This document shows, in pieces, positions 4,276 to 37,123 of a stretch of 64,000 nt of DNA. A program made the position numbers and the translations under genes. Source of the stretch: Escherichia phage vB_EcoM-fFiEco06. The notes under the pieces were generated by a model, which was not told the DNA's origin, did no database searches, and saw only the letters and a list, made by a program, of their open reading frames with translations. The stretch lies in the sequence record NC_054914.1; one strand, written 5' to 3'. Every line of letters begins with the position of its first letter. The stretch's first letter is position 1.

Positions 4276-4327
4276 CACTTATCCTCGTTTGGTTTCGGGA
4301 ATATTATACTCCGGTAATCATAAAGCT

Positions 4328-4347
4328 AAAGGCCCGAAGGCCTTTTA
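4328..4347 (-). terminator. C(UUCG)G-type hairpin between 39.1-like ORF and gene 39
   Basis: plus aaaggcc-cgaa-ggccttt; RNA stem AAAGGCC loop UUCG; weak U tract. Confidence 0.45.
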
Positions 4348-4614
4348 TTTAAAACGAATAGTCGAATCCTTGAAGAATAGTCCAGAACATACTGTTCCTT
4401 CTACTTTCTGCCCAGTAGGTCCAATAGCACGAAATCCAGTATGCTGGAAATCATTTTCAGAGCAACCGAACCAATTATATCCAGTGATTTCAATATTAGT
4501 AAAACCACTTGAAGACAAAACTTTGGTTGCATTATCAGCATCAGTACATCCTATTAAAGACACTGCTAATACTAATGCTGCGATAGAACGATTAATATAT
4601 TTCATAATTTTCAC
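4345..4614 (-). CDS. putative lipoprotein
   Basis: 89 aa; N-terminal signal with lipobox-like LIGC. Confidence 0.6.
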   Translation of the reverse strand: MKIMKYINRSIAALVLAVSLIGCTDADNATKVLSSSGFTNIEITGYNWFGCSENDFQHTGFRAIGPTGQKVEGTVCSGLFFKDSTIRFK

Positions 4615-4982
4615 TTAAATTTAATGGCTTGAAGAAGACTAATAACTCTCAAGCGGCTTCTTTCATCTTTAACTGTAAAAGAAAGAGGGTCACCAGATTT
4701 CATAGTGATAGTGCATTCAAAAGCAAAACCTTCGGGAACTTCTTCGAAGAAGTCAAATTCTTCATCATATATTAGAACATTACTCTGAAAACTGTGAAGA
4801 ATTTTTCCGTCATTTCCAGATGCTGTACTAATCATTGTAACGTTATTACCTTTCATATCTTCAACGATAAATTCGCTTGTAGATATTACAGCATTAATAG
4901 AACCATTCCTATAAATAGCAGAAAATAGATATTTCTTTTCTTCACCTTCGCGAATGCGATATTTCTTACCGATTTTAAACAT
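4611..4982 (-). CDS. hypothetical protein
   Basis: 123 aa ORF; ATGA overlap with downstream ORF. Confidence 0.6.
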   Translation of the reverse strand: MFKIGKKYRIREGEEKKYLFSAIYRNGSINAVISTSEFIVEDMKGNNVTMISTASGNDGKILHSFQSNVLIYDEEFDFFEEVPEGFAFECTITMKSGDPLSFTVKDERSRLRVISLLQAIKFK

Positions 4983-4984
4983 AA

Positions 4985-5161
4985 TTACCCTTTAAGTAAG
5001 TCGTAAAATCCGCCATTCACATGCTTAGGGGCAGAGACTAACCGAATAGCAATCCGATGACAATCAGGACATACATCAGTATCTCTTTCAGAAATTTTCT
5101 TGATTTTTTCGTATTCTTTTGCGCAGTCTTTTGATTGACATTTATAATCATAAAGCGGCAT
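4985..5161 (-). CDS. FmdB-like zinc-ribbon small protein
   Basis: 58 aa ORF absent from the track; begins MPLYDYKCQSKDC and has a second CPDC pair; start 2 nt after upstream stop. Confidence 0.5.
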   Translation of the reverse strand: MPLYDYKCQSKDCAKEYEKIKKISERDTDVCPDCHRIAIRLVSAPKHVNGGFYDLLKG

Positions 5162-9063: not shown

Positions 9064-10383
9064 TCACACATAAAATACGTCATAACGACCACGGGTAACA
9101 CCAACATAAAGAAGTTGTTGAGCTAATTCAGCATCTGCATAATGAATGCAAGGCGTATAAATGAAAGCACGGTCTACAGACATACCCTGAGCTTTATGGA
9201 ATGTTGATGCAGGAAGTGCTTTCACTTTACTAAACTGTGATTTAGCATCCCAAAAATCACTCCATGGAGCTTTTCCGCCTTTGTTCCAATTTTTATAAGT
9301 TTCTGCCGTTTTACCTAAAAATAGGTTAAACTTATACAGTTCTTCATCAGATGAAATTATTTTAATCTTTTCACGATAATATTCATCATCGCCATAAGTT
9401 TCTACTGTTAAATCCCAATGACGAATTAGATATTCTCCAGGAACACCACGAGCTTTAACAAACGTCGATGTATACTCTGCTTCTATAATACGAACTAATT
9501 GTCCGTTATTAAAAATAATTTCTGACACAGGCTTTCCATCAATTTTATATGTTTTAATTAATGGTTCCTGCATTACAATAATTTCACCGACAATAAAATC
9601 TTTATCAGTTTCAAAAATCTTTTTACGAATAATGCTATTTAACTTGTCAACAGATTTATTCGTAAATGCCATTACGCGATTTTCAAACAAATCATCTAGT
9701 GATTTGACGATTGAAAAATAATTTACCATAAAATCGCGTAAAGCGGTATCACCAGTAAATCCACGTACTCCATGACCGTCAACAACTTTATCATAAATCC
9801 ACTTACCGTTGCGAACATCAGTAGCTACATCAATAATAGGAGCATTACTGCGTTTAACTTCAGTAAGTTCACACTGATAAAAATCTTTGTGTGTAAAGAA
9901 TGGACTGATATAAGCAGTATTTTCTCCTGGATCAACAGGTCTAATTTGCTTATTATCACCTATTCCAATTATAGTACACCAAGGTGGAATAGTTGAAAGC
10001 AGAATTTTAAATAGCTTTCTATCATACATTGACACTTCGTCGCAGATTAATACCCTGCATTTAGCTAAATCTGGTACTTCCTTCTGTTCAAAAAGAACGT
10101 TTTCTTCATACGTAACTGGGTTAATTTTAAGAATACTGTGAATAGTACTCGCTTCTTTCCCCGACAGTTTTGAAAGAATCTTTTTAGCTGCATGTGTAGG
10201 AGCTGCCAAAATGATACCAGTTTCGCCTGTTGATATTAAAGCTTCAATGATGAACTTAGTAAGAGTAGTCTTACCAGTACCAGCAGGTCCATTAATAGTT
10301 ACATGATGTTTCTTTTCTTTAATAGCCCTCATAACGATGTTAAAGGCATTTTTCTGGCCTTCGGTCAAATCATCAAATGTCAT
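9064..10383 (-). CDS. dda: Dda DNA helicase (SF1B)
   Basis: 439 aa; Walker A GPAGTGKTT; sequence recalled as T4 Dda. Confidence 0.9.
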   Translation of the reverse strand: MTFDDLTEGQKNAFNIVMRAIKEKKHHVTINGPAGTGKTTLTKFIIEALISTGETGIILAAPTHAAKKILSKLSGKEASTIHSILKINPVTYEENVLFEQKEVPDLAKCRVLICDEVSMYDRKLFKILLSTIPPWCTIIGIGDNKQIRPVDPGENTAYISPFFTHKDFYQCELTEVKRSNAPIIDVATDVRNGKWIYDKVVDGHGVRGFTGDTALRDFMVNYFSIVKSLDDLFENRVMAFTNKSVDKLNSIIRKKIFETDKDFIVGEIIVMQEPLIKTYKIDGKPVSEIIFNNGQLVRIIEAEYTSTFVKARGVPGEYLIRHWDLTVETYGDDEYYREKIKIISSDEELYKFNLFLGKTAETYKNWNKGGKAPWSDFWDAKSQFSKVKALPASTFHKAQGMSVDRAFIYTPCIHYADAELAQQLLYVGVTRGRYDVFYV

Positions 10384-15887: not shown

Positions 15888-17227
<1,340 letters not shown>

Positions 17228-19945: not shown

Positions 19946-21372
19946 TAAAATTTTAATTCATTTGCCAAAGCATCTAACTGAGCTCGAGCGGATTCGTTTC
20001 TTTGATAGCGATTCTGTTCAGCCTGAATTTGCTGTGAACCTGCTACTTCGTTCACTTCAGTTGGAGTAGAATCTTGTTCAATTTCTACCCATTTCTGATT
20101 TCCTTTTTGAACACCCATCAAAAACTTATTCCATTTATTCTTATCACCGTATCGTGATTTGATTTGCTTAATGAGTTGTTGTTCAGCAGCTGCTAGCTCC
20201 TCGGTTTCAATGACCGCAAGCATAAAATCAGCTGTTGCTGGAAGACCGGCAGATTCTGCAATATCGCTCATGTTAACATCAGAAGAATCCCAAGCTTGTT
20301 TACCAACCTGTGCTGCAGTCCAAAGAACAGTTTCGGTTTCAACAGCAAGAGCACGTAATTCCTCTGCAATGGCTTTAACAGTTGTGTAACTATTTTCTGA
20401 GTAAACTCTAATGCGGCAAGATTTACAAATACCCAGATAGTCGACAATAATGATTGTTGGAACAAAATTCTTCTTGAGCTTTAATTCGTTTAAAAGCGAT
20501 CGAAATGTATTAGCATCTGCTCCACCAGTAGGATACTGTTTAACTATTAAACGACCGAGAGTAGATTTCTCGCGCCATTTTTCCATTTTTCCTTTATACT
20601 CAGCGTAAGAAATATGCCCGTCATCAATGTCATCAAGAGAAACATCAAGCATATTAGCATCAATACGCTTAGCACAGACTTCTTCTGCCATTTCCATGGA
20701 AATGTAAAGAACATTATGTCCGAGCTGCAAATAATCTGCTGCCAATGAACACAGACCTAATGACTTACCGACGTTAACACCAGCCATTAAAACGTTCAGT
20801 GTTCCAGTTTCAGCTCCACCTTTAGTAATTTTATTTAGAATTTTGAGTCTAAATGGAACCTTACGAGCTTTATTCATATAAGATAGCCAACGTGCTTCGT
20901 AGTCATCCATCCAATCATGACCAACGTAACTATCAAATGAAATTGATAATGCTTGGCGCATGATGTCAGGAATAGCACCTACATCTGGCATTTTCTTATT
21001 TCGTTTTTCCGGAGGAAGCTCAGCATTAGTTTGAATTTCGATTATTTTAGACGTAGCATTAAACATCGCCCTTTGCTGAACATATTTTTCTGTTTCTTTT
21101 ATTAACCAACTGTGGTCTTCCGGAGAATCAGCCAGTTTTGAAATAAGTGTTTTTACACCAGAATATTCTGTTTCAGTAAATGAACTATTTTCTAATGCAA
21201 CATTTAACGCATTAATAGATGGAACGCTATGATACTCATTAACATGAGATTTAATTAATTTGAATGTATTTTTAGCTGGACCACTTTCAAAATATTCTGA
21301 ATCCATATATGGCCAAACTTTTGAAAAATAAGCTTGATCAAATATGAGATGAGAAAGAATAATTTCTACCAC
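19945..21372 (-). CDS. 41: replicative DNA helicase (DnaB-like)
   Basis: 475 aa; Walker A GVNVGKS; recalled as T4 gp41; track start codon is GTG. Confidence 0.9.
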   Translation of the reverse strand: MVEIILSHLIFDQAYFSKVWPYMDSEYFESGPAKNTFKLIKSHVNEYHSVPSINALNVALENSSFTETEYSGVKTLISKLADSPEDHSWLIKETEKYVQQRAMFNATSKIIEIQTNAELPPEKRNKKMPDVGAIPDIMRQALSISFDSYVGHDWMDDYEARWLSYMNKARKVPFRLKILNKITKGGAETGTLNVLMAGVNVGKSLGLCSLAADYLQLGHNVLYISMEMAEEVCAKRIDANMLDVSLDDIDDGHISYAEYKGKMEKWREKSTLGRLIVKQYPTGGADANTFRSLLNELKLKKNFVPTIIIVDYLGICKSCRIRVYSENSYTTVKAIAEELRALAVETETVLWTAAQVGKQAWDSSDVNMSDIAESAGLPATADFMLAVIETEELAAAEQQLIKQIKSRYGDKNKWNKFLMGVQKGNQKWVEIEQDSTPTEVNEVAGSQQIQAEQNRYQRNESARAQLDALANELKF

Positions 21373-21381
21373 ACTTACTCC

Positions 21382-21744
21382 TTAAAAGAATTTAAACTTT
21401 TTCTTTGACCTTTTATTGAATGCATCTTGCAGTTGCATTGTAATACATTTTTCTACATGAGGAGCTAACTCAGCTTTTCTTTCTTGGTCAAGAACAGCAA
21501 AGTCCATTACAACCTTTCCATCAACCCAATCCAGTTTAGTTACATACACTATATGTGTAGAACCATCTTCTAGTTTAATGACAATCTCCTGGATAACATT
21601 TTCCATAGCGGATTTAATTATCTTAAGAGACTCATTAAAAAGACGTTCTTTTCTTTCTTCTTCCCCCTCCGAAGAGGGGGATTCATCGATAATTTCTAGA
21701 TCTAAATCTAAATCATCTTTATTCATTAAATTCTTCCATATCAC
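21382..21744 (-). CDS. 40: hypothetical protein (gene 40 position)
   Basis: 120 aa acidic ORF between uvsX and 41; symbol by position. Confidence 0.5.
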   Translation of the reverse strand: MIWKNLMNKDDLDLDLEIIDESPSSEGEEERKERLFNESLKIIKSAMENVIQEIVIKLEDGSTHIVYVTKLDWVDGKVVMDFAVLDQERKAELAPHVEKCITMQLQDAFNKRSKKKFKFF

Positions 21745-22900
21745 TTAACTGTTCGAGGTCAGTTTCTAAATCAGCTGCTGATTTACTTTTACTTTCTGGA
21801 GATTTAAATTTTTCAACCTTTGAGTTAATCAATTCATCAACTTCAGCTTCAACAATTTCATTACTATCAATAGCACCTAACTGATAAGCACGTTTAATAG
21901 CATCTCGGAATGGTTGATGCTTAAATAAAGGACCCCAGAATGTAGTACAGTTAGTATCTTTTGCACGCCAAGATTTTTCTTCGCGAATCATCTCGCCGGT
22001 TTCTTCGTCAAGAAATTCACGAGCATACCAGCCATTTTTTGGTTTTACTACAAATCCTAATTCTAGAGCCATATCTAACAATCCAGAATAAGGATCGATA
22101 CCACCGTCAAATTTAACATCAATAAAGAATTTACTTTTTTCTTTAACGGTACGAGATTTTTCTACATTTAGAACAAATTGATACCCCTGAAGATCAGAAC
22201 CATCTTTAATCTGGCGCTTACCGATAATGAATACAGTATCAGCCGAATACATTACGCCTGTACCACCTGTCATCACGGTTTTACTAAACATTTCAATTGT
22301 TTCAATTGTATGGTTAACCGCAACACATGGAATATTTTTAATGCTAAAATAAGGAGTAACAATACGGAATAATGACTTCAGTGATTTAGCACGAGTCATA
22401 TCTGCCACAGATTTTTCATTCAAGGCATCTTCCGTTTCTTTCTTGGAAGCCATATTACCAATTGAGTCGATGAATACAATAACCTTTTCACCACGCTCAA
22501 TAGCTTCAAGCTGATTCACCATATCAATTTTCAGTTGTTCAACTGACTGGATTGGTGTATGAATTACTCGTTCCGGGTCAACTCCCATGGATCGCAAATA
22601 AGCTGGAGTAATACCAAATTCGCTATCATAGAATAGACAAACCGCGTCAGGATATTTGTTTAAATATGCCGCAACCATAGTCAAAGACATATTTGATTTA
22701 AAGTGTTTAGAAGGCCCTGCGAAAATAGTTAAACCAGACTGCATACCGCCATCAATCGCACCAGAAATAGCAATATTAAGCATTGGGATTTTTGTACGGA
22801 TTACATCCTTTTCATTAAAGAATTTAGATGTAGTCAGTTCAGCAGTCATTTTAGAAGTGGAAGCTTTAATCAAACGGGATTTTAAATCTGCAATAGACAT
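21719..22900 (-). CDS. uvsX: UvsX RecA-like recombinase
   Basis: 393 aa; RecA fold Walker A GPSKHFKS; recalled as T4 UvsX. Confidence 0.9.
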   Translation of the reverse strand: MSIADLKSRLIKASTSKMTAELTTSKFFNEKDVIRTKIPMLNIAISGAIDGGMQSGLTIFAGPSKHFKSNMSLTMVAAYLNKYPDAVCLFYDSEFGITPAYLRSMGVDPERVIHTPIQSVEQLKIDMVNQLEAIERGEKVIVFIDSIGNMASKKETEDALNEKSVADMTRAKSLKSLFRIVTPYFSIKNIPCVAVNHTIETIEMFSKTVMTGGTGVMYSADTVFIIGKRQIKDGSDLQGYQFVLNVEKSRTVKEKSKFFIDVKFDGGIDPYSGLLDMALELGFVVKPKNGWYAREFLDEETGEMIREEKSWRAKDTNCTTFWGPLFKHQPFRDAIKRAYQLGAIDSNEIVEAEVDELINSKVEKFKSPESKSKSAADLETDLEQLSDMEEFNE

Positions 22901-22977
22901 TCATTTTTTCCATAGGCATCATTATATTTTCCTCACTGGTTAAAGATAGAGTAATTATAACACAATAAATTTAGGCA

Positions 22978-23826
22978 TTAATCAACTGCTATTGGATGAA
23001 TAGCATTAAACTTATGAAATGCTTCTGATTTTTCTTTACGCGAAACGCACATGCGAAGAACCTTTAATGGCTCGTCTTCTTCACCCAACGATTTTCGTTT
23101 TTCAATATTAGAAGTTTTCCAACGAGCTTGCTCTGGAAACTCTCTATTGATTTGCTCAAGCGCTCTATTATGTTTAGAATTACTACGAATTGAACTACAC
23201 CCGCCAGGAGCTTGTGCTTTTCCAGATACAACTAGATATTTGAACAAGGCCAAATGCGGATAACCTTGATTAATTAAATTGAGAAATGCATACATATCTT
23301 CGCATAAATCAATTTTTCCATACCCAATTTGTTCTGTCGTAAGTTTTCCGAGGTCATACCATGTATTCGTGAATCCATATGAATTTTCACGATAATTACC
23401 CCAAGATGAAGTAATTTTAAAAATTGGTAGACGAGCATGACCGTGATAATACCCGCAATCCATGGCATCTTCAACATATTGAATCAATTCATAGAACTGT
23501 TCACGAGTTAATTGATTAATTTTATCTACGCGCCGTTTATCGTCTCTCTTTCGTATTGAACTCATACGGATAGTAGTATCATCGTCAATCATCCAGATTC
23601 GTTGACCTGCATACATATCAGTAATTGCTTTACGAGTACCGGCAATTCCATTAACATCATCAGGAATAGTTACAATTTTAGCTCTAGACCCATAGGCATC
23701 ATAATAAGCTTTTTCTTCGTGTTCACGCACTATAATATGCGGTTCATAATCAGTCGGAAACATATCAAGGGCAGAAACTGCCCCGACACGTTGATAACTT
23801 GGAATTACGAATTGAATCATTTCCAC
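22978..23826 (-). CDS. GT-A-like glycosyltransferase, candidate beta-glucosyl-HMC-alpha-glucosyltransferase
   Basis: 282 aa; DDD (DxD-like) motif in IWMIDDDTTI; occupies the locus where T4 has beta-gt but is unrelated to it. Confidence 0.5.
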   Translation of the reverse strand: MEMIQFVIPSYQRVGAVSALDMFPTDYEPHIIVREHEEKAYYDAYGSRAKIVTIPDDVNGIAGTRKAITDMYAGQRIWMIDDDTTIRMSSIRKRDDKRRVDKINQLTREQFYELIQYVEDAMDCGYYHGHARLPIFKITSSWGNYRENSYGFTNTWYDLGKLTTEQIGYGKIDLCEDMYAFLNLINQGYPHLALFKYLVVSGKAQAPGGCSSIRSNSKHNRALEQINREFPEQARWKTSNIEKRKSLGEEDEPLKVLRMCVSRKEKSEAFHKFNAIHPIAVD

Positions 23827-24557
23827 TCACCTTTATAGTCTTTTTTCACAATATGAGTTTCGCCAGTATTCCACCAATGATCAACCAAATAAAAATGACG
23901 AGAATATACATGAAGACTTCCAACATTCCATATAATAGAACCTGCTTTATACTGACGAGTTGAATCGCCTGCATTCAAATCAGATACTAATTTATCTAAT
24001 ACGTATTTTTGCCATGCATAATCATTACGGAATCCGAAGACCACGTCATTTGAGCGCATGCTTACTACCGCATTGACTTTCTTATCACGAATCAAGTACT
24101 GTACTGTATTAGTACACATGAAATCTGACATACCATCTTTATTGTAGTCAAACTGCATAGATGGACGAGTATAAATCATGATACCACGTCGAGAATCAGG
24201 ATTTTGACCAAGTTCAGCTAAACACATATCATACTGGGCATAGTTATCTTCTGACCAGATAGCCCAACCATAATTCGAGTTAATTTCACCTTTAGAAGAT
24301 GCTACTTGTTGCCAAATCTTCGGTGTTTCACCCGGAATATCTTTAACGAACAAGCTCTTAGATTTATACCATTCAAGTTCACGCTGAATGTATTCATCAT
24401 TAAGAGCGCCAAAAATAAACGGTTCATCTGCTACAAATGATGCGCCAATAATTTCAATAGTTTTAACGCCAGTTTTATCAACTACGAAATCTTTTTCCTT
24501 TAATGCAAGCCCCAAATGAAGACGGATTTCTTCAACTGTCATAGAGTCACTAATCAT
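23817..24557 (-). CDS. 42: dCMP hydroxymethylase
   Basis: recalled as T4 gp42; ATG at 24557 gives 246 aa (MISDSM), track start 24578. Confidence 0.9.
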   Translation of the reverse strand: MISDSMTVEEIRLHLGLALKEKDFVVDKTGVKTIEIIGASFVADEPFIFGALNDEYIQRELEWYKSKSLFVKDIPGETPKIWQQVASSKGEINSNYGWAIWSEDNYAQYDMCLAELGQNPDSRRGIMIYTRPSMQFDYNKDGMSDFMCTNTVQYLIRDKKVNAVVSMRSNDVVFGFRNDYAWQKYVLDKLVSDLNAGDSTRQYKAGSIIWNVGSLHVYSRHFYLVDHWWNTGETHIVKKDYKGEWK

Positions 24558-24565
24558 TTTAAACC

Positions 24566-24715
24566 TCAATTGATACATTCATATTTAACTTGTAACAGTA
24601 ATAAACTCCAACCTAAAACAATAGTTGGAATCATAAGAGGAACCGTTACACTATAGTATATACTTATTATAACCATCAAGATTAAAAGCAATGCTGCTAT
24701 AATTTTGCTTTTCAT
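24566..24715 (-). CDS. small hydrophobic protein
   Basis: 49 aa ORF not in track; ATGA overlap with imm stop. Confidence 0.4.
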   Translation of the reverse strand: MKSKIIAALLLILMVIISIYYSVTVPLMIPTIVLGWSLLLLQVKYECIN

Positions 24716-24963
24716 TCCTTCTCTCTGATGATAATTACCTGATTTGGCTGCGCAGACTTTTTAGTTTCACCTGCAATTGACCAAATAAATGTAATAAACC
24801 AACCAATAATTGACCAGTTAAACAGTAAAGATGTGAAAAAGATTCCTACTGTTGATTTTGACCCACGCATCAAAGCAATAAACCATGGAAGCATGTATAT
24901 AATAATAGCCAACACACCCGAAACTAAAACCATAAAAATTGAACCTGCTACTAAAGTTTCCAT
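24712..24963 (-). CDS. imm: immunity to superinfection membrane protein
   Basis: 83 aa, two transmembrane helices; size and position match T4 Imm. Confidence 0.8.
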   Translation of the reverse strand: METLVAGSIFMVLVSGVLAIIIYMLPWFIALMRGSKSTVGIFFTSLLFNWSIIGWFITFIWSIAGETKKSAQPNQVIIIREKE

Positions 24964-24970
24964 GTTTTCC

Positions 24971-25351
24971 TCACTTAGTCAAATTTTTTACACATGAATT
25001 ATAAGAATTCACTACATACTCCATCGGAGCATTTTTACCTGTGCGCCATTGGTAATTATTAGCCCAATTTGCCCAAAGTTCAGCGCAGTAATTTTCAATT
25101 TTTTCTTCGCGTGTAATTACATCCGAATTACGATATGCTTGAGCGGATTCATCTGGACGAATAGCCTCGTCAAAATTCGCCTGCATTTGTTCGACTGTTT
25201 GCTTTGGAGCTTCTTTATAACACTTGACATTAGGATTATAAAATTTGCTTGAACAGTTTACAATTTTTCCTGCATCAGACTGATTTACTACCGGTCCTTG
25301 AGCTACACAACCAGTAAGACCTAATGCAATAACCAAAATAGCGATTTTCAT
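24971..25351 (-). CDS. putative lipoprotein
   Basis: 126 aa; signal peptide with lipobox LTGC. Confidence 0.6.
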   Translation of the reverse strand: MKIAILVIALGLTGCVAQGPVVNQSDAGKIVNCSSKFYNPNVKCYKEAPKQTVEQMQANFDEAIRPDESAQAYRNSDVITREEKIENYCAELWANWANNYQWRTGKNAPMEYVVNSYNSCVKNLTK

Positions 25352-25361
25352 AATAATTTCC

Positions 25362-25610
25362 TCAAATGCAAGTAGTAATTACTCCAGTAGTGCTTATGCA
25401 GGTATTACCCATTTGCACACCTAAAGATCCATTTGTATTCACATGAAGATTATCATCAATTTTAACTGATATTTTACCATTAGTGTGAATAACAGTGCTA
25501 GATTCAATCACAGGTTGAGTATCATTTTCAACACTAACAAATGGAACTGCTGCTAATGCAACTAAACAAACTGCTAAGCATCCCATAACAATTTTCATTT
25601 TATTCTCCAA
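25362..25610 (-). CDS. putative secreted protein
   Basis: 82 aa with N-terminal signal peptide. Confidence 0.55.
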   Translation of the reverse strand: MENKMKIVMGCLAVCLVALAAVPFVSVENDTQPVIESSTVIHTNGKISVKIDDNLHVNTNGSLGVQMGNTCISTTGVITTCI

Positions 25611-25632
25611 ATCCGTATTAGTTGATAGTTGT

Positions 25633-25662
25633 ATAGTACCACAGAGGAACAGTCTTGTAAAC
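25633..25662 (-). promoter_or_regulatory. early promoter inside a repeated promoter cassette
   Basis: GTTTAC-N18-TACTAT; surrounding 42 nt identical to 51338..51379. Confidence 0.6.
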
Positions 25663-25744
25663 AGTTTTGTGAAAAATTTTTAGGGAATTCTAAAGGTCCA
25701 GAATCATCTGTTTTTCATAAGTATAGATTTATATTACTTGTATG

Positions 25745-25767
25745 AAAAAGGGACCCGGAGGTCCCTA
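25745..25767 (-). terminator. rho-independent terminator after gene 43
   Basis: RNA GGGACC-UCCG-GGUCCC followed by UUUUU. Confidence 0.7.
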
Positions 25768-25778
25768 GATTTATTCTA

Positions 25779-28475
25779 TCAGCCAAACAGGAAGTCTAAC
25801 GAAGCTTTTTCTTCATAGTCCATACCAGCCGATTCACACATACCCGCAAGCGGTTTAACAAACGATTTTTGGAACAAAGTTGAGTAGTCAATCCAAGACA
25901 GTACGTCAGAACGAATTTCTTTTGGAAGTTCTGTACCCGATGGCCAAGCAATGCACTTATCACCAAATGGATTTCCTTCACGTAATGGAAGAACCATTAC
26001 TTTATTTCCATCCAAAATTGGAGCTACACCTAAACCGCTAACAGCTCGACGATAAGTTAGCACACCGCGAATATGGAACGGGCATTTAAATCCTGGCCAA
26101 CCTTTATCATCATATTTCGCTATATCGTTCGCAGTTTTTACTTCAGCAATAACTTTATAGTCAAGTTGACGATATTCTTTCTCGAAGTTCTTGTAGTATT
26201 CTTGGACAGACTCTTCACCTTCCTGAAGAATACGACGAATACTTTCTTCGAGAGCTTCTTGCACTGCTTTTGGTGTTGAACTCTGCTGAGTTTCCATACC
26301 CATGATTTTTAGATGTGGTTCAGCAAATCGCTTATCTTCCATATCATAAACGTTCAGAGCATAACGTTTTTTCGCTTTCCAAAATCCACCAACGCCCTTT
26401 GAACCAAGCGGAGGGCAAGAAATAGCTTCACGGTCCATATGCATCAGATGCTCGCGGTTATTCATATAATCACATAACTCACGATATGCAACATCAATCA
26501 TAGGTTCCATCTTTTTCTTACCGAACTGATTCATGAATTCAACTAAATCGTTCTGCTCTTTGAATCGGTCAAGACCAACTTTTTCAATAACTTTATCTAC
26601 ACAAACATATACCGAATCAGTATCACCTGCTGCAATGAAATCTTCACCATTAGTTCCGCATACTTTATTCAGATATTCATTAATTTTACGAGCAATCCAC
26701 TGAATACCGACTTGACCAAAAATTGTGATAGCAGTAGCATTTCGCAAATCATAGTAACGGAAATGAATATTACCAAGAGCACCATAAAGACTGTTAATGA
26801 GAATTTTACGGTTCAGCTGATTTGTGTTAGCAAGTGTAGCAGCTTTTTCACATTCCTCAATCAAACTATTGAGAACAGATTCAGTATAATTCGACAGTTC
26901 ATTTAAGAAATCATCACTGAACTTAACATATCGTTCAACTTCTGGTTTAGTTGAACAAGACCCTGCGCCTTTCATAATAATCTTTTTAATAGCTTCGGCA
27001 TTCATTTCTTCAGCGAACATTTTCTTTTTCCAATCTTTACGCTGGAAAAATACTTTAGCGATTTCCTTTGGAATGATACCTTCTTGATGCTTATCATACA
27101 TCCATCCATTCGGAGAACAAGAATATTCATCACTTGGTTTAGGAGCTGTTCCTGCGATATATTCATGAATTGGATGAACTTTAAACTGACCACGAATAGT
27201 TTCAGGACTAATGTTAACCTGACGAATAATGCTCGGATACAGAGACGTCAAGTCAAAACTCATAATATATCGACGAGCAATTGGTTTAGGTTCAAATACA
27301 AATGCACCCGGAAAACTCTGTTTAACATGCGAACCTTGCTGAGGAATAACCTTGTGTTCACCTTTCAATGAGTTAAAAATAATAGCATCCCAAGTTTTAA
27401 TAGGACTCATTACACCAGAAAAAGGCATTTTAGCATAATAAGACATACTTAAAACTAGATCGATAAACCCGCGAATTTTATCAATTGCTTGAACTGATTC
27501 TACGTCAATGATGTTATAACTAATGTATCGTTGATGATTAGTCTCACGGAGTTTATTAATAGGACCGTCGTATGGTAATTTACCTTTTTTGGTTTCATGT
27601 TGAGCAACTGATTCCAAAGAGAATGACGGCAAATTAGTAAAAGCAAATTTCTTGTACAAATCTAAATAATCAAGAATAGATACGCCATCAATAGAATAAA
27701 TTTCTTTGCTACCGTACATATTTTGAATTAGTTTAGATTTTACCCGACCGATTGGAGAGAAGCGTTTCATACTACGTTCACCGAGAACCATTTTAACGCG
27801 ATTCATGATATACGGAACGTCAAATCCCTCAATATTCCAACCAGTAAAAATAGCAGGTCGTTTCTGTTCCCAAAGATTGATATATTCCATGAGCATATCA
27901 CGCTCATTATCGAATGGCATATAAATTACTCGGTCAAGAATTTCCTGAGGAACTTCATCACCACCTTCACAGTCAAGCTTAGCAGCTAACTTTGCATCCC
28001 ATTTTGATACTGAACCATACATTGAATTCAAAAGGTCGAAAACATAAAAACGATCGTCAATTGAATCATAATGAGTGATAGCATCAATTTCATATTCAGC
28101 TTTCATTGGGTCAGGAAATTTATCACCAGTAACCTCAATGTCACAGTTAGCTACACGAACAAATTTTCGGTCATAAACAATTTCTGAACCATATGTATCA
28201 CTGATATAAGCGAGTTTAAAATCGTTCATACCGAGAGCTTCGAGACCGATGTCTTCCATTCGCTTCATCCAATCTCGAGCATCTTTCATTGATGGAAATT
28301 TTTGAGGAGCGCAATTTTTACCATAGATGTCTTTGTACTTTGACTCTTCCTTACAATGCCTAAACATAGTTGGAAGATATTCTACTTCACGAGTACGTTC
28401 CTTTCCGTTTTCATCAATATAACGTTCAACAATGTTATTTCCGACTGTTTCAATAGAGATATAAAATTCTTTCAT
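25779..28475 (-). CDS. 43: DNA polymerase (family B)
   Basis: 898 aa; polymerase motifs DxxSLYPS and YGDTDS; recalled as T4 gp43. Confidence 0.95.
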   Translation of the reverse strand: MKEFYISIETVGNNIVERYIDENGKERTREVEYLPTMFRHCKEESKYKDIYGKNCAPQKFPSMKDARDWMKRMEDIGLEALGMNDFKLAYISDTYGSEIVYDRKFVRVANCDIEVTGDKFPDPMKAEYEIDAITHYDSIDDRFYVFDLLNSMYGSVSKWDAKLAAKLDCEGGDEVPQEILDRVIYMPFDNERDMLMEYINLWEQKRPAIFTGWNIEGFDVPYIMNRVKMVLGERSMKRFSPIGRVKSKLIQNMYGSKEIYSIDGVSILDYLDLYKKFAFTNLPSFSLESVAQHETKKGKLPYDGPINKLRETNHQRYISYNIIDVESVQAIDKIRGFIDLVLSMSYYAKMPFSGVMSPIKTWDAIIFNSLKGEHKVIPQQGSHVKQSFPGAFVFEPKPIARRYIMSFDLTSLYPSIIRQVNISPETIRGQFKVHPIHEYIAGTAPKPSDEYSCSPNGWMYDKHQEGIIPKEIAKVFFQRKDWKKKMFAEEMNAEAIKKIIMKGAGSCSTKPEVERYVKFSDDFLNELSNYTESVLNSLIEECEKAATLANTNQLNRKILINSLYGALGNIHFRYYDLRNATAITIFGQVGIQWIARKINEYLNKVCGTNGEDFIAAGDTDSVYVCVDKVIEKVGLDRFKEQNDLVEFMNQFGKKKMEPMIDVAYRELCDYMNNREHLMHMDREAISCPPLGSKGVGGFWKAKKRYALNVYDMEDKRFAEPHLKIMGMETQQSSTPKAVQEALEESIRRILQEGEESVQEYYKNFEKEYRQLDYKVIAEVKTANDIAKYDDKGWPGFKCPFHIRGVLTYRRAVSGLGVAPILDGNKVMVLPLREGNPFGDKCIAWPSGTELPKEIRSDVLSWIDYSTLFQKSFVKPLAGMCESAGMDYEEKASLDFLFG

Positions 28476-28533
28476 AGATATTCCTTAGTTTATAGCCCGA
28501 GTTATTAGGCTCTTGATATATTATACTCCAAAT

Positions 28534-28551
28534 AAGGGGCCGAAGCCCCTT
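28534..28551 (-). terminator. C(UUCG)G hairpin after regA
   Basis: RNA AAGGGGC-UUCG-GCCCCUU; weak U tract. Confidence 0.45.
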
Positions 28552-28553
28552 GC

Positions 28554-28922
28554 TTAATTACCAATCGTATATTTAGGAACGAGTTTCCATTCATGTTTTT
28601 GTTTAAAAGAAATAACTCGGAAGTTATTAGTTAAATCTTTCATAAAAGTTCTTTGACCAGGAACGATTTCAATCAGTCCCCAATCTTCTAATAGCCATGC
28701 AATCGAATCACGACGAACTTCATCTTCTTCTGTCATTTCAACTTGGCGACCATCCATACGAAGCATTTCTTTAAAATGAACGATATAATATAGTCCTTTT
28801 TTCTGAAGAATATGACAGGACTGATACAGAACTTTATCTTTATTATTAGCAATTCCCATACGAGTCAAAGTTTCTTTTACTTTCAGAAAATCTTCAGGTT
28901 TTTTAAGAGTAATTTCAATCAT
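28554..28922 (-). CDS. regA: RegA translational repressor
   Basis: 122 aa; recalled as T4 RegA. Confidence 0.9.
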   Translation of the reverse strand: MIEITLKKPEDFLKVKETLTRMGIANNKDKVLYQSCHILQKKGLYYIVHFKEMLRMDGRQVEMTEEDEVRRDSIAWLLEDWGLIEIVPGQRTFMKDLTNNFRVISFKQKHEWKLVPKYTIGN

Positions 28923-28923
28923 T

Positions 28924-29487
28924 TTACCATTCCAATGCTAGTTTTTTGAGTTGTTTCTGTTCTTTTACGTTCTTAGTCACTTCTTTCAAAAAATCATCCG
29001 TGACTAAACCTTTTAGTTCTTTTAATACTAAAGGAAGTTTTCCATTTTTAGTAAGAATTGATTTATAGTTAATTGCATCATTTGTATTAACTTGATACCG
29101 CTTAGCAAGTAACTTAATAATCAATACTTCGGTGGAATCTTCAACCAGTTTTGCCCATTTACCATATCTTTTACCACGAGGAACTGCAGCCATTAGATAA
29201 TTAAAATGAGCTTCATCACTTAATCCAGAACCGATTAAATTCATAGCATATACAGCTGGCATGCACTCTGGAAATTGTGATAATGCATTTTCAACCATGA
29301 ATTTTGAATAATCTTTTTGAGCAATAGAGCATTTAGTTTTATTATTAATAGCTCCAATTATTTCAAAAAATTCATTTTCAGCTTTTTCTTTAAAAGAATC
29401 AGCAGCGGATTGGACAGCTGTCCAATCTTTTGAATACCAAGCAACTTGATGCTCGTTTAATTGAATATCATCTTCAAATAAGCTCAT
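28924..29487 (-). CDS. 62: clamp loader small subunit
   Basis: 187 aa; size and position match T4 gp62. Confidence 0.85.
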
Positions 29488-29488
29488 A

Positions 29489-30448
29489 TCACTTCCACTG
29501 CATTTCGCATGCTAATTGAATGAAAAGATAAGCTAAATGCAATTCAGTATTAGCTGCAATACCATGATACTGATTATTTTCGCCTACAATTTCGTACATA
29601 CGAATAATACTCTGCGGAGTTACACGTGAATAGATTTCTTCGGCAAGTTTACCAACGAACCACGAATAATCAGCTGCATATTTTGGTGCTAAAGCTCTGA
29701 GTTGTTTAACATCTTTATTTTTGAGAGACTCAAGAACATCATCAATAGCACCACGATCGTTAGTAACCAGTGATAAAATACCAGCATCCAAAACACCTTT
29801 AGATGAATAACTATCGAGCTCGCCAATAGTTTTACGAAAATCAGGAAAATTCTTTTTAACCAAAGCTGCTACAACTTTCATATCAGCTATAGCAATTCCT
29901 TCATGCTTACAGATTTCAGTCAATCGACGAATCATCTGCTTCATCATTTCAATTTTATCTTCATCGGTCGGTTGACCGAACGTAATAACTCGGCAGCGTG
30001 ACTGAAGTGGTTTAATAATACCATCAATATTGTTAGCAGTAATAATAATACTACAGTTTGAACTATAAGCTTCCATAAAGGAACGAAGATGTCGCTGAGA
30101 TTCTGCTAAACCTGAACGGTCAAATTCATCAATAACGATTACTTTTTGACGACCATCAAATGAAGCGGCGCTGGCAAAATTAGTCAAAGGACCACGAACG
30201 AAATCAATTTTACAATCTGAACCATTCACAAACATCATATCAGCATTTACATCATGACACAATGCTTTTGCTACAGTTGTTTTACCTGTTCCTGGAGAAG
30301 GAGAATGAAGAATAATATGTGGAATCTTACCTTTACTTGTAATAGATTTAAAGGTTTCTTTATCAAAGGCGGGAAGAATACATTCATCGATAGTAGATGG
30401 ACGATATTTCTGTTCAAGAATGTGTTCTTTTTCATTTACGGTAATCAT
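29489..30448 (-). CDS. 44: clamp loader ATPase subunit (AAA+)
   Basis: Walker A SPGTGKTT; ATG at 30448 gives 319 aa, track start 30463 is TTG. Confidence 0.9.
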
Positions 30449-31883: not shown

Positions 31884-32600
31884 ATGAATTATAAACTAAT
31901 TTATGAAAAGTTAATCTCTAATGCTAAATCTCGAAAACTTGATTGCTATACTGAATCTCATCACATTATACCACGCTGTTTAAATGGCAGCGATGATGCT
32001 TCAAACTTAGTAGATTTAACACCAGAAGAGCACTATGTAGCTCATCAACTTTTAGTAAAAATTTATCCTTCTGAACCAAAATTAGTCTATGCTGCTAACA
32101 TGATGACAGTTTCCACGAAATACGCTAAACGCAACAATAAAACTTTCGGTTGGATTCGTCGTAAACTCTGGGAAATAGAAAAGAACAAAGAATTCTCCCA
32201 GGAGACACGAAAGAAAATGTCTGATGCAGTAGCTAATAAAGCAAGACTAACTTGTCCTCATTGCGGTAAGTCTGGATTAAGCGGGAATATGAATCGTTGG
32301 CATTTTGATAACTGTCCAAATCACCCTAATCCTAAAGTTAGACCACCAATGTCTAAAGAACACAGAAATAATATCTCAAACGGGCTTAAAGCAATCGTTC
32401 TTGAAGAAACATCCTGCGAATTCTGCGGAATGATAGGCAAGAAATGCGTTATCGCAGCGCATAGAAATTTCTGCAAGAAAAATCCAAATGGACGCAAGAA
32501 AACTGAAAAGACTGGTACTTGCGTCCATTGTGGTAAAGTTACCACTTTCGGAAATTTATCAAGATGGCATAATGATAACTGTAAATATAAACCTAGCTAA
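31884..32600 (+). CDS. HNH homing endonuclease with three C-terminal zinc-finger-like repeats
   Basis: 238 aa; HNH motif ESHHIIPRCLNGSDDASNLVDLTPEEHYVAH; three CxxC...H..C repeats; only long plus-strand gene, convergent with gene 46. Confidence 0.8.
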   Translation: MNYKLIYEKLISNAKSRKLDCYTESHHIIPRCLNGSDDASNLVDLTPEEHYVAHQLLVKIYPSEPKLVYAANMMTVSTKYAKRNNKTFGWIRRKLWEIEKNKEFSQETRKKMSDAVANKARLTCPHCGKSGLSGNMNRWHFDNCPNHPNPKVRPPMSKEHRNNISNGLKAIVLEETSCEFCGMIGKKCVIAAHRNFCKKNPNGRKKTEKTGTCVHCGKVTTFGNLSRWHNDNCKYKPS

Positions 32601-35905: not shown

Positions 35906-35923
35906 AAGGGCCGAAGCCCTTTA
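35906..35923 (-). terminator. C(UUCG)G hairpin at end of a-gt
   Basis: RNA AAAGGGC-UUCG-GCCCUUU overlapping the a-gt stop codon. Confidence 0.5.
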
Positions 35924-37123
35924 TTTTGTAATAATGTCAAACTGTTCTTTAAAGCAGAAGCTTGAATCTTGATGCTGATACAAAAATTCATATGCTTTTT
36001 CTCGCTCACGGTCATAAAGAGCTCGGTCAGATGACAGTTCTTTAATACGTTCAAACGTTGATTCCATATCATTTTCATCAAACCAAATGATACCGCTATC
36101 ATGCGAGGTCAAAGGAGTATTATCAACACGGAATTTTAAATTTTCGCCAGTAGATTTCCAAAATACCGGAATTGTTCCACATGCACCAAGCTCGAGATGA
36201 GTATATTCTAAAGAACGTTGCAGATATTTTTTATCCAACTTACTCAACTGATAACCAAATCCGGATTTACTCATGCGTTCAAGCATTTCGCTATTTACAT
36301 AACGGTCAAGAATTTGCGTTGGCAAATTAGGAGCAATTTTAATTTGGTCTACTTGATGAAGACGATAATACTCGTATGGAATTCCTTTTTCTTTAATAGG
36401 AATGAACGCTGGAGAACGTTCCAGACCTTCCATAATAGTACTTAGTCCTGCAGGTTTAAGATGTTTTTCATGAAAATCAAACATCTGATAAAAACCTTTC
36501 CATGTAGTCGTACGACCAATCCAACGGTTGATATTCATGTTAATTTCAGAAACATCTTTCCAGTAGGTTGACCGAACCTTCGCAATATCCATAGGAGGCT
36601 GAAAGTTATATACTGTCGGTGCTTCTTCAATATCATCAAACAGAGAAACAGTTTCTGGATACCATTCTTTCATCAGAACTTTATTAAAATCACCATTATC
36701 AGAATGACTAAAAATAACATCAGCTCGACGAACAGTTTCTTCTAATCCCAAATTTCGACGCAAAGAAAGAGAAGAATGGTCATGTTGATAAACTACAACA
36801 CGAACAGAAGGTTTAATGTTATCAATAATTTTTTTATAGTTATTAATAGTGTCTTCTTCAACCGAAGTAGCAGGAACTGAATTGATAATTAGAATATCAC
36901 AATCATTTACCAGCTTAAGTGTTTTATCATATTCTTTTGCCAATAAAACCGGAATTGAAAATGATTTATAATCATGCGCGCAATTACGAGTAAATGATTT
37001 ATCTTTAGCATAAACCAAAGTTACTTCATGACCATTTTTAATAAACCAATCACGTTGCTCGAGTGAGAATTTTGTTACACCACAACCTTCAAGACCTCGA
37101 GCCATAAAAATACATACTTTCAT
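35921..37123 (-). CDS. a-gt: alpha-glucosyltransferase
   Basis: 400 aa; size and position after gene 47 match T4 alpha-gt. Confidence 0.8.
   Translation of the reverse strand: MKVCIFMARGLEGCGVTKFSLEQRDWFIKNGHEVTLVYAKDKSFTRNCAHDYKSFSIPVLLAKEYDKTLKLVNDCDILIINSVPATSVEEDTINNYKKIIDNIKPSVRVVVYQHDHSSLSLRRNLGLEETVRRADVIFSHSDNGDFNKVLMKEWYPETVSLFDDIEEAPTVYNFQPPMDIAKVRSTYWKDVSEINMNINRWIGRTTTWKGFYQMFDFHEKHLKPAGLSTIMEGLERSPAFIPIKEKGIPYEYYRLHQVDQIKIAPNLPTQILDRYVNSEMLERMSKSGFGYQLSKLDKKYLQRSLEYTHLELGACGTIPVFWKSTGENLKFRVDNTPLTSHDSGIIWFDENDMESTFERIKELSSDRALYDREREKAYEFLYQHQDSSFCFKEQFDIITK

Follow-up and report, generated by a model that had tools for sequence, protein, structure and literature searches.

Judged by orthology, the open reading frame (ORF) between uvsX and gene 42 of Escherichia phage vB_EcoM-fFiEco06 is the well-known T2/T6-type beta-glucosyl-HMC-alpha-glucosyltransferase gene (ba-gt, also named ggt), which encodes the second-glucose enzyme. 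We consider it very probable that its product has a GT-A fold and adds a second glucose to the product of the DNA alpha-glucosyltransferase a-gt, giving gentiobiosyl-5-hydroxymethylcytosine (gentiobiosyl-hmC), likely as an inverting, GT2-like enzyme. The basis of this reading is orthology, genomic position, predicted fold, motif conservation, the presence of a-gt and the absence of the T4-type beta-glucosyltransferase gene b-gt, and the product and biological effect would be those to which published genetics and LC-MS tie the orthologues. The identification in the earlier note was thus right, and the gene is no newcomer: the fFiEco06 copy is ordinary, already annotated and with nothing unusual about it, and ba-gt is covered by a Pfam family, by a PHROG and by recent genetic studies. 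The genome announcement for this phage makes no mention of DNA modification. All positions given below are those of the window, i.e. the whole stretch of 64,000 nucleotides that was analysed (NC_054914.1).

The gene and its locus

An uninterrupted ORF of 282 codons, counted from a GTG, is present at 22978..23826 on the minus strand both in the ORF list and in the sequence, with uvsX downstream and gene 42 upstream (Table 1). Its 280 codons from the ATG, in a genome of 34% G+C, and its thousands of homologues mean that the ORF is not a product of chance. The earlier note on this DNA had described a 282-aa frame between these two genes; the frame is real, and its start is corrected to the ATG at 23820, which leaves 280 aa. 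We regard this ATG (23820..23818) as the likely start rather than the GTG at 23826, and the same CDS, 22978..23820 with 280 aa, is given in GenBank for the near-identical record MG781191.1. The GTG was rejected as a start; the codon falls within the Shine-Dalgarno-like AAGGTGAG (23833..23826). The ATG and the stop codon of gene 42 overlap as ATGA (23820..23817), and the overlap suggests that translation of ba-gt may be coupled to that of gene 42.

Along all of its 280 aa the protein shares 97% identity with the T2 and T6 orthologues, whose genomes carry a gene of 280 or 279 aa in the identical slot, named ggt, beta-glucosyl-HMC-alpha-glucosyl-transferase, in MH751506 (T2) and MH550421 (T6). 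This is the alignment that the earlier note had proposed as a check on its suggestion of a T2/T6-type enzyme at the b-gt locus, and the suggestion is borne out by the identity, the shared slot, the predicted GT-A fold, the presence of a-gt and the absence of b-gt. The best homology is to glycosyltransferase families: PHROG 842, which bears the same name, matched at 2.4e-88, and Pfam PF20691 (TAGT) scored 39.3 bits (gathering score 27.5), covering model positions 2–205 of 205 and being the only Pfam match at E ≤ 1. No NCBIfam model matched the protein. In published work the T2/T6 ba-gt is equated with TAGT (PMC13216743, PMC13390438). By megablast the gene was present in 477 phage records, with at least 80% of its length in 473 and at least 90% DNA identity in 473 of the 477; they are mostly T4-like phages of Escherichia, Shigella and Yersinia, and many already use the name beta-glucosyl-HMC-alpha-glucosyltransferase. 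The T2 and T6 genes were reportedly cloned by Winkler and Rueger in 1993 (NAR 21:1500). A paralogue search of the window and of the remaining genome detected no second copy.

The window was compared by blastn with positions 20000–30000 of T4. A cassette of 946 bp stands in place of 1941 bp of T4, comprising segA and b-gt; segA, which adjoins b-gt in T4, is missing from the fFiEco06 locus, and 96.7% DNA identity is found to the T4 segment 25497–27013, covering the gene 42-imm-imm.1 region. A tblastn search with T4 b-gt, covering the window and positions 64001–164000 of MG781191, gave nothing better than E 3.5, and no b-gt is annotated anywhere in MG781191.1. The resemblance of the ORF product to T4 b-gt, which the earlier note could not see, is indeed lacking (best BLASTP E 4.1), and the a-gt gene that it had placed elsewhere in the window is genuine (Table 1).

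Table 1. Coordinates of the features discussed, as positions in the window
Feature	Coordinates	Strand	Details
dam	15888..16667
186-aa ORF	16667..17227	-	adjoins dam; 1-base overlap with the dam start
uvsX	21719..22900	-	downstream neighbour of ba-gt; supported by Pfam
Replacement cassette	22889..23834		T4 DNA homology ends at 22888 (5' end of uvsX) and restarts at 23835 (3' end of gene 42)
MotA-like element	22954..22977	-	between the ba-gt stop and uvsX
ba-gt (ggt, TAGT) CDS	22978..23820	-	280 aa and TAA stop (22980..22978); beta-glucosyl-HMC-alpha-glucosyltransferase
E174-D175 codons ('ED' motif)	23296..23301	-	GAA GAT; opens helix 174–184 in the model
D79-D80-D81 codons (DxD motif)	23578..23586	-	GAC GAT GAT; at the end of strand beta4 (IWMI); follows strand 74–78 in the model
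R11 codon	23788..23790	-
Gene 42, dCMP hydroxymethylase	23817..24557	-	upstream neighbour of ba-gt; Pfam thymidylate synthase family and annotation; makes the 5-hydroxymethyl-dCMP precursor
Shine-Dalgarno-like AAGGTGAG	23826..23833	-	5 nt upstream of the ATG at 23820; read from the sequence
HNH endonuclease gene	31884..32600	+	lies between gp45.2 and gp46 in opposite orientation (annotation of the near-identical record)
a-gt, DNA alpha-glucosyltransferase	35921..37123	-	Pfam PF11440, 1.8e-237; makes alpha-glucosyl-hmC, the ba-gt acceptor

Escherichia phage vB_EcoM-fHoEco02 (MG781191.1) and the window are collinear, with seven single-base differences in the first 50 kb and none at the ba-gt region. 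The differences, at 10112, 14297, 15198, 31162, 38143, 38637 and 49940, are all transitions, and there are no indels; the window is therefore that of a sibling isolate or variant of this record. The HNH gene is probably a homing endonuclease insertion. The 186-aa ORF next to dam has weak, sub-threshold similarity to the DpnII and BanI restriction endonucleases (E 0.005–0.009), and dam and this neighbour are common to the window and to phage EL, the 186-aa protein being identical at 186 of 186 residues.

In a generic sigma-70 scan of 21600–25000, promoter-like sites were less numerous than in shuffled sequence; terminator-like sites in the same interval were at chance level, one of them inside the ba-gt ORF (23784..23768). 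Within ba-gt there are no homopolymer runs of the sort reported to act as contingency loci in T2 agt. In the stretch between the ba-gt stop and uvsX, TGCCTAA follows directly on the TAA, and after a further 11 nt comes TGTTATAAT. The arrangement resembles a MotA box with an extended -10, the T4 middle-promoter consensus, and may be the middle promoter expected for uvsX; it was not among the sites found by the generic sigma-70 scan.

Predicted fold, conserved residues and likely mechanism

In the structural model, the ba-gt protein has a GT-A fold with one Rossmann-like nucleotide-sugar-binding domain and is structurally similar to solved GT-A enzymes. An AlphaFold3 model of T6 TAGT in a 2026 paper is likewise of the GT-A type and was placed as a sister group to GT2 (PMC13216743). 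PDB sequence searches returned no solved structure of any ba-gt/TAGT family member. An exhaustive profile search at E ≤ 0.001 collected 2147 sequences, each representing a cluster at 50% identity, and 130 of them, reaching down to approx. 18% identity, were aligned for the analysis of conservation. R11, D80, D175, G186 and G207 are invariant in these 130 sequences, at least 90% of which also share I6, P7, R63, D79, D81, L180, G206, R212 and P229. The DDD motif that the earlier note had pointed out is thus present, at residues 79–81, with its middle residue invariant in the alignment and the two flanking ones among the conserved positions, and its place behind strand 74–78 is where a DxD motif canonically lies. 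The E174-D175 pair is conserved as well.

No significant sequence match to GT2, either to Pfam PF00535 or to solved members, was found. The best match of the family profile among PDB sequences was weak (E 0.085) and stood among chance matches to polycystin; it was to the GT2 beta-1,3-glucosyltransferase 9jma_A. The single-protein search of PDB sequences gave nothing meaningful (E > 1). The pieces aligned with 9jma_A are GT2 signatures, IPsYkR against IPTYNR and lmlDDD against FLDDDD (the LDDDD motif), and E174-D175 falls in an alignment of meD with EED whose stretch scores below significance. With so weak a sequence link to GT2, the roles assigned to residues rest on the analogy of fold and motif: D79-D80-D81 is the predicted ligand of a divalent metal and of the UDP diphosphate, and D175 is the predicted catalytic base, by comparison with GT2 enzymes.

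In the mechanism that we propose, a-gt would act after replication and place an alpha-linked glucose on 5-hydroxymethylcytosine of the phage DNA, and ba-gt, with UDP-glucose as donor, would join a second glucose to the first by a beta-1,6 bond, giving gentiobiosyl-hmC, the product known from orthologues. The enzyme must invert the anomeric configuration, because the donor UDP-glucose is alpha-linked and the known product of the orthologues is beta-1,6. D79-D80-D81 and a divalent metal would hold the UDP leaving group, if the roles and the metal dependence are as in the enzymes compared, and D175 would deprotonate the 6-OH of the acceptor, with direct displacement at C1 converting alpha-UDP-glucose into a beta product. 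The virion DNA would then be expected to hold a mixture of hmC, alpha-glucosyl-hmC and gentiobiosyl-hmC, free of beta-glucosyl-hmC.

Alleles, extent of modification and rival readings

According to their description, ten Durham Tequatrovirus phages carry a-gt and TAGT and lack b-gt, and LC-MS of their DNA detected hmC, alpha-glucosyl-hmC and alpha-gentiobiosyl-hmC, the beta-glucosyl form not being detected (PMC13390438). The proportions vary widely among relatives with this gene pair. T2 DNA is given in the literature as approx. 25% bare hmC, 70% alpha-glucosyl-hmC and 5% gentiobiosyl-hmC, and T6 DNA as approx. 25%, 3% and 72%, respectively. In phages EL, BGP and Geo the three forms stand as 1:2:2 parts (approx. 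40% gentiobiosyl), and in the Solly group (Solly, CP and TB37) about one third is hmC, alpha-glucosyl-hmC is present in traces and about two thirds (approx. 67%) is gentiobiosyl-hmC (PMC13390438).

Alleles and phenotypes were tabulated for these six of the ten Durham phages (NR1, QOTSP, Some and EH2 were left out). EL, BGP and Geo carry V50, I89, K95, R97, I101, S202 and H203; Solly, CP and TB37 carry I50, M89, R95, C97, V101, A202 and Q203, with A30 in CP; and the window carries V50, I89, K95, R97, I101, A202 and Q203, together with an I30 unique to it. By sequence, therefore, the fFiEco06 allele is a mosaic, of EL type at 50, 89, 95, 97 and 101 and of Solly type at A202 and Q203. It differs from the EL/BGP/Geo allele at three residues (I30V, A202S and Q203H in EL), from that of Solly and TB37 at six, from T2 at eight and from T6 at about ten. 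Residues 202 and 203 adjoin the invariant G206-G207 loop.

The a-gt of the window is identical to that of Solly and differs from that of T2 at two residues (99.5% identity) and from those of T6 and EL at 32. Two a-gt alleles, approx. 8% apart in protein, are seen, one in T2, Solly and the window and the other in T6 and EL. The alleles of a-gt and ba-gt assort independently, which points to recombination between the two glucosyltransferase loci, approx. 12 kb apart. T6 and Solly carry different a-gt types and yet both reach nearly complete conversion, so that the outcome does not follow the type of a-gt.

R11 is found in the window, in T6 and in all Durham phages compared. Codon 11 of T2 ba-gt encodes H11 in both independent records (at 4283–5125 of the AP018813 sequence and 1786–2628 of the MH751506 sequence compared), and the T2 allele otherwise equals that of Solly except for P251S. 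Since R11 is invariant in the family and the Solly allele gives approx. 67%, R11H is a candidate cause of the 5% gentiobiosyl-hmC of T2. The two sequenced T6 records differ in their lesions: AP018814 (4135–4974 of the sequence compared) lacks one Asp of the DDD and encodes 279 aa, whereas in MH550421 (2138–2980 of the sequence compared) codon 10 is a stop (Q10*) and the annotated CDS begins at M20. Comparative studies have used this truncated form as the RefSeq 'T6 TAGT'. From these sequences, ba-gt may have been lost or weakened in some laboratory T6 stocks. A rather doubtful idea is that the window holds a natural chimera of alleles that track different outcomes, next to a Solly-type a-gt, and that it could, with R11H of T2, help to explain the 5% of T2 versus the 72% of T6. 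If the ba-gt allele sets the completeness of conversion of alpha-glucosyl-hmC, the ratio in fFiEco06 DNA would place the determinant in one of two regions. Correlations of allele with ratio follow phylogeny and come from six phages only; they are leads, not findings.

The same data bear on whether the gene, although an orthologue, is a weak allele that leaves virion DNA nearly all mono-alpha-glucosylated, as in T2. T2 has an intact 280-aa gene and yet approx. 5% gentiobiosyl-hmC, its a-gt is 99.5% identical to that of the window, V50, I89, K95, R97 and I101 match the allele of the EL group, in which conversion is only partial, and the lesions in sequenced laboratory T6 records imply that selection on ba-gt can relax. 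Against this, the window retains every invariant residue, including the R11 that is H11 in both sequenced T2 stocks; Solly, with an identical a-gt, converts nearly all of its alpha-glucosyl-hmC to gentiobiosyl-hmC, and even the EL allele gives approx. 40%. We therefore judge a weak allele to be improbable.

A donor sugar or an acceptor other than that of the T2/T6 enzyme, as suspected for distant TAGT homologues without a-gt and b-gt, appears very improbable here. TAGT proteins form a large and varied family, as the number of cluster representatives attests, and solitary TAGT homologues, of unknown product, occur in 288 of 753 phage genomes (PMC13216743); but the fFiEco06 protein is 97% identical to those of T2 and T6 and three residues away from that of EL, for which gentiobiose was measured, its locus and its a-gt partner are those of T2/T6-type phages, and genes of sugar-nucleotide biosynthesis are not among the nearby annotations. 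That the enzyme substitutes functionally for b-gt and places beta-glucose directly on bare hmC can hardly be credited, for although it occupies the exact b-gt slot and an inverting GT-A enzyme would form a beta linkage, beta-glucosyl-hmC went undetected in the Durham phages with a-gt and TAGT that were analysed, approx. 20–33% of their hmC is unglucosylated, which is unexpected if bare hmC is the substrate (PMC13390438), and the DNA of T6 delta-ba-gt was read by its authors as containing alpha-glucosyl-hmC only (PMC11078745).

With ba-gt taken as the second-glucose enzyme, the earlier prediction that the gene pair would reveal the hypermodification pattern holds for one part and is overstated for the other. 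From the sequences, the kinds of modification may be predicted with confidence. Gene content does not reveal their proportions, which in relatives span 5% to 72% gentiobiosyl; a quantitative answer needs chemistry. The yields of intact-looking orthologues differ greatly (approx. 5% in T2), so that an intact gene is no guarantee of substantial gentiobiosylation. By its gene content fFiEco06 belongs to the common, T2/T6-like class of Tequatrovirus with a-gt and ba-gt and not to the rare T4 class with a-gt and b-gt, both of which are encoded in only 6 of the 753 phage genomes carrying a GT homologue (PMC13216743).

The practical value, in what is otherwise routine annotation, lies in predicting how sensitive this phage, which is of therapeutic interest, would be to defence systems. 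In vitro, gentiobiosyl-hmC is resistant to the Brig1 glycosylase, and T6 delta-ba-gt is more sensitive to Brig1, which can degrade the DNA of the mutant (PMC11078745). The BapA deglucosylase removes no glucose from gentiobiosyl-hmC; DNA of T6 delta-ba-gt is its substrate, whereas that of wild-type T6 is not, and both Brig1 and BapA act on alpha-glucosyl-hmC. Gentiobiosyl-hmC is still recognised by enzymes of the GmrSD and BrxU types (PMC13390438, PMC13216743). The fraction of alpha-glucosyl-hmC would stay sensitive to Brig1, and that of bare hmC would be a potential target of McrBC.

Comparison with known systems

The closest systems are those of T2 and T6, in which ba-gt is the same gene and shares with the window the slot, the a-gt partner and the ATGA by which it overlaps gene 42. 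Set against individual records, the fFiEco06 gene has R11 where T2 has H11, the full DDD where AP018814 retains two D, and none of the Q10* of MH550421. In comparison with EL, BGP and Geo on one side and Solly, CP and TB37 on the other, the window allele mixes both, its dam and 186-aa neighbour being EL-like and its a-gt Solly-identical.

The score against Pfam TAGT, the TET-associated glycosyltransferase family, is above the cut-off, but the window system has no TET/JBP dioxygenase. Here gene 42 supplies hmC already as a nucleotide, and what ba-gt would glucosylate is the sugar that the base carries and not the base. With inverting GT-A enzymes of the GT2 type (AvpGT, 9jma; TarP, 6h1j; BcsA, 4p00; SpsA, 1h7l) ba-gt has no significant sequence match, and it is unlike them in its acceptor, glucosylated DNA, and in being soluble and single-domain. 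By analogy it likely works in the manner of such an enzyme, while standing outside GT2 by sequence. With T4 b-gt it shares the genomic slot, the UDP-glucose donor and the beta linkage; the two differ in sequence, with no similarity between them, in fold (GT-B in b-gt, predicted GT-A in ba-gt) and in acceptor, which is bare hmC for b-gt and alpha-glucosyl-hmC for ba-gt.
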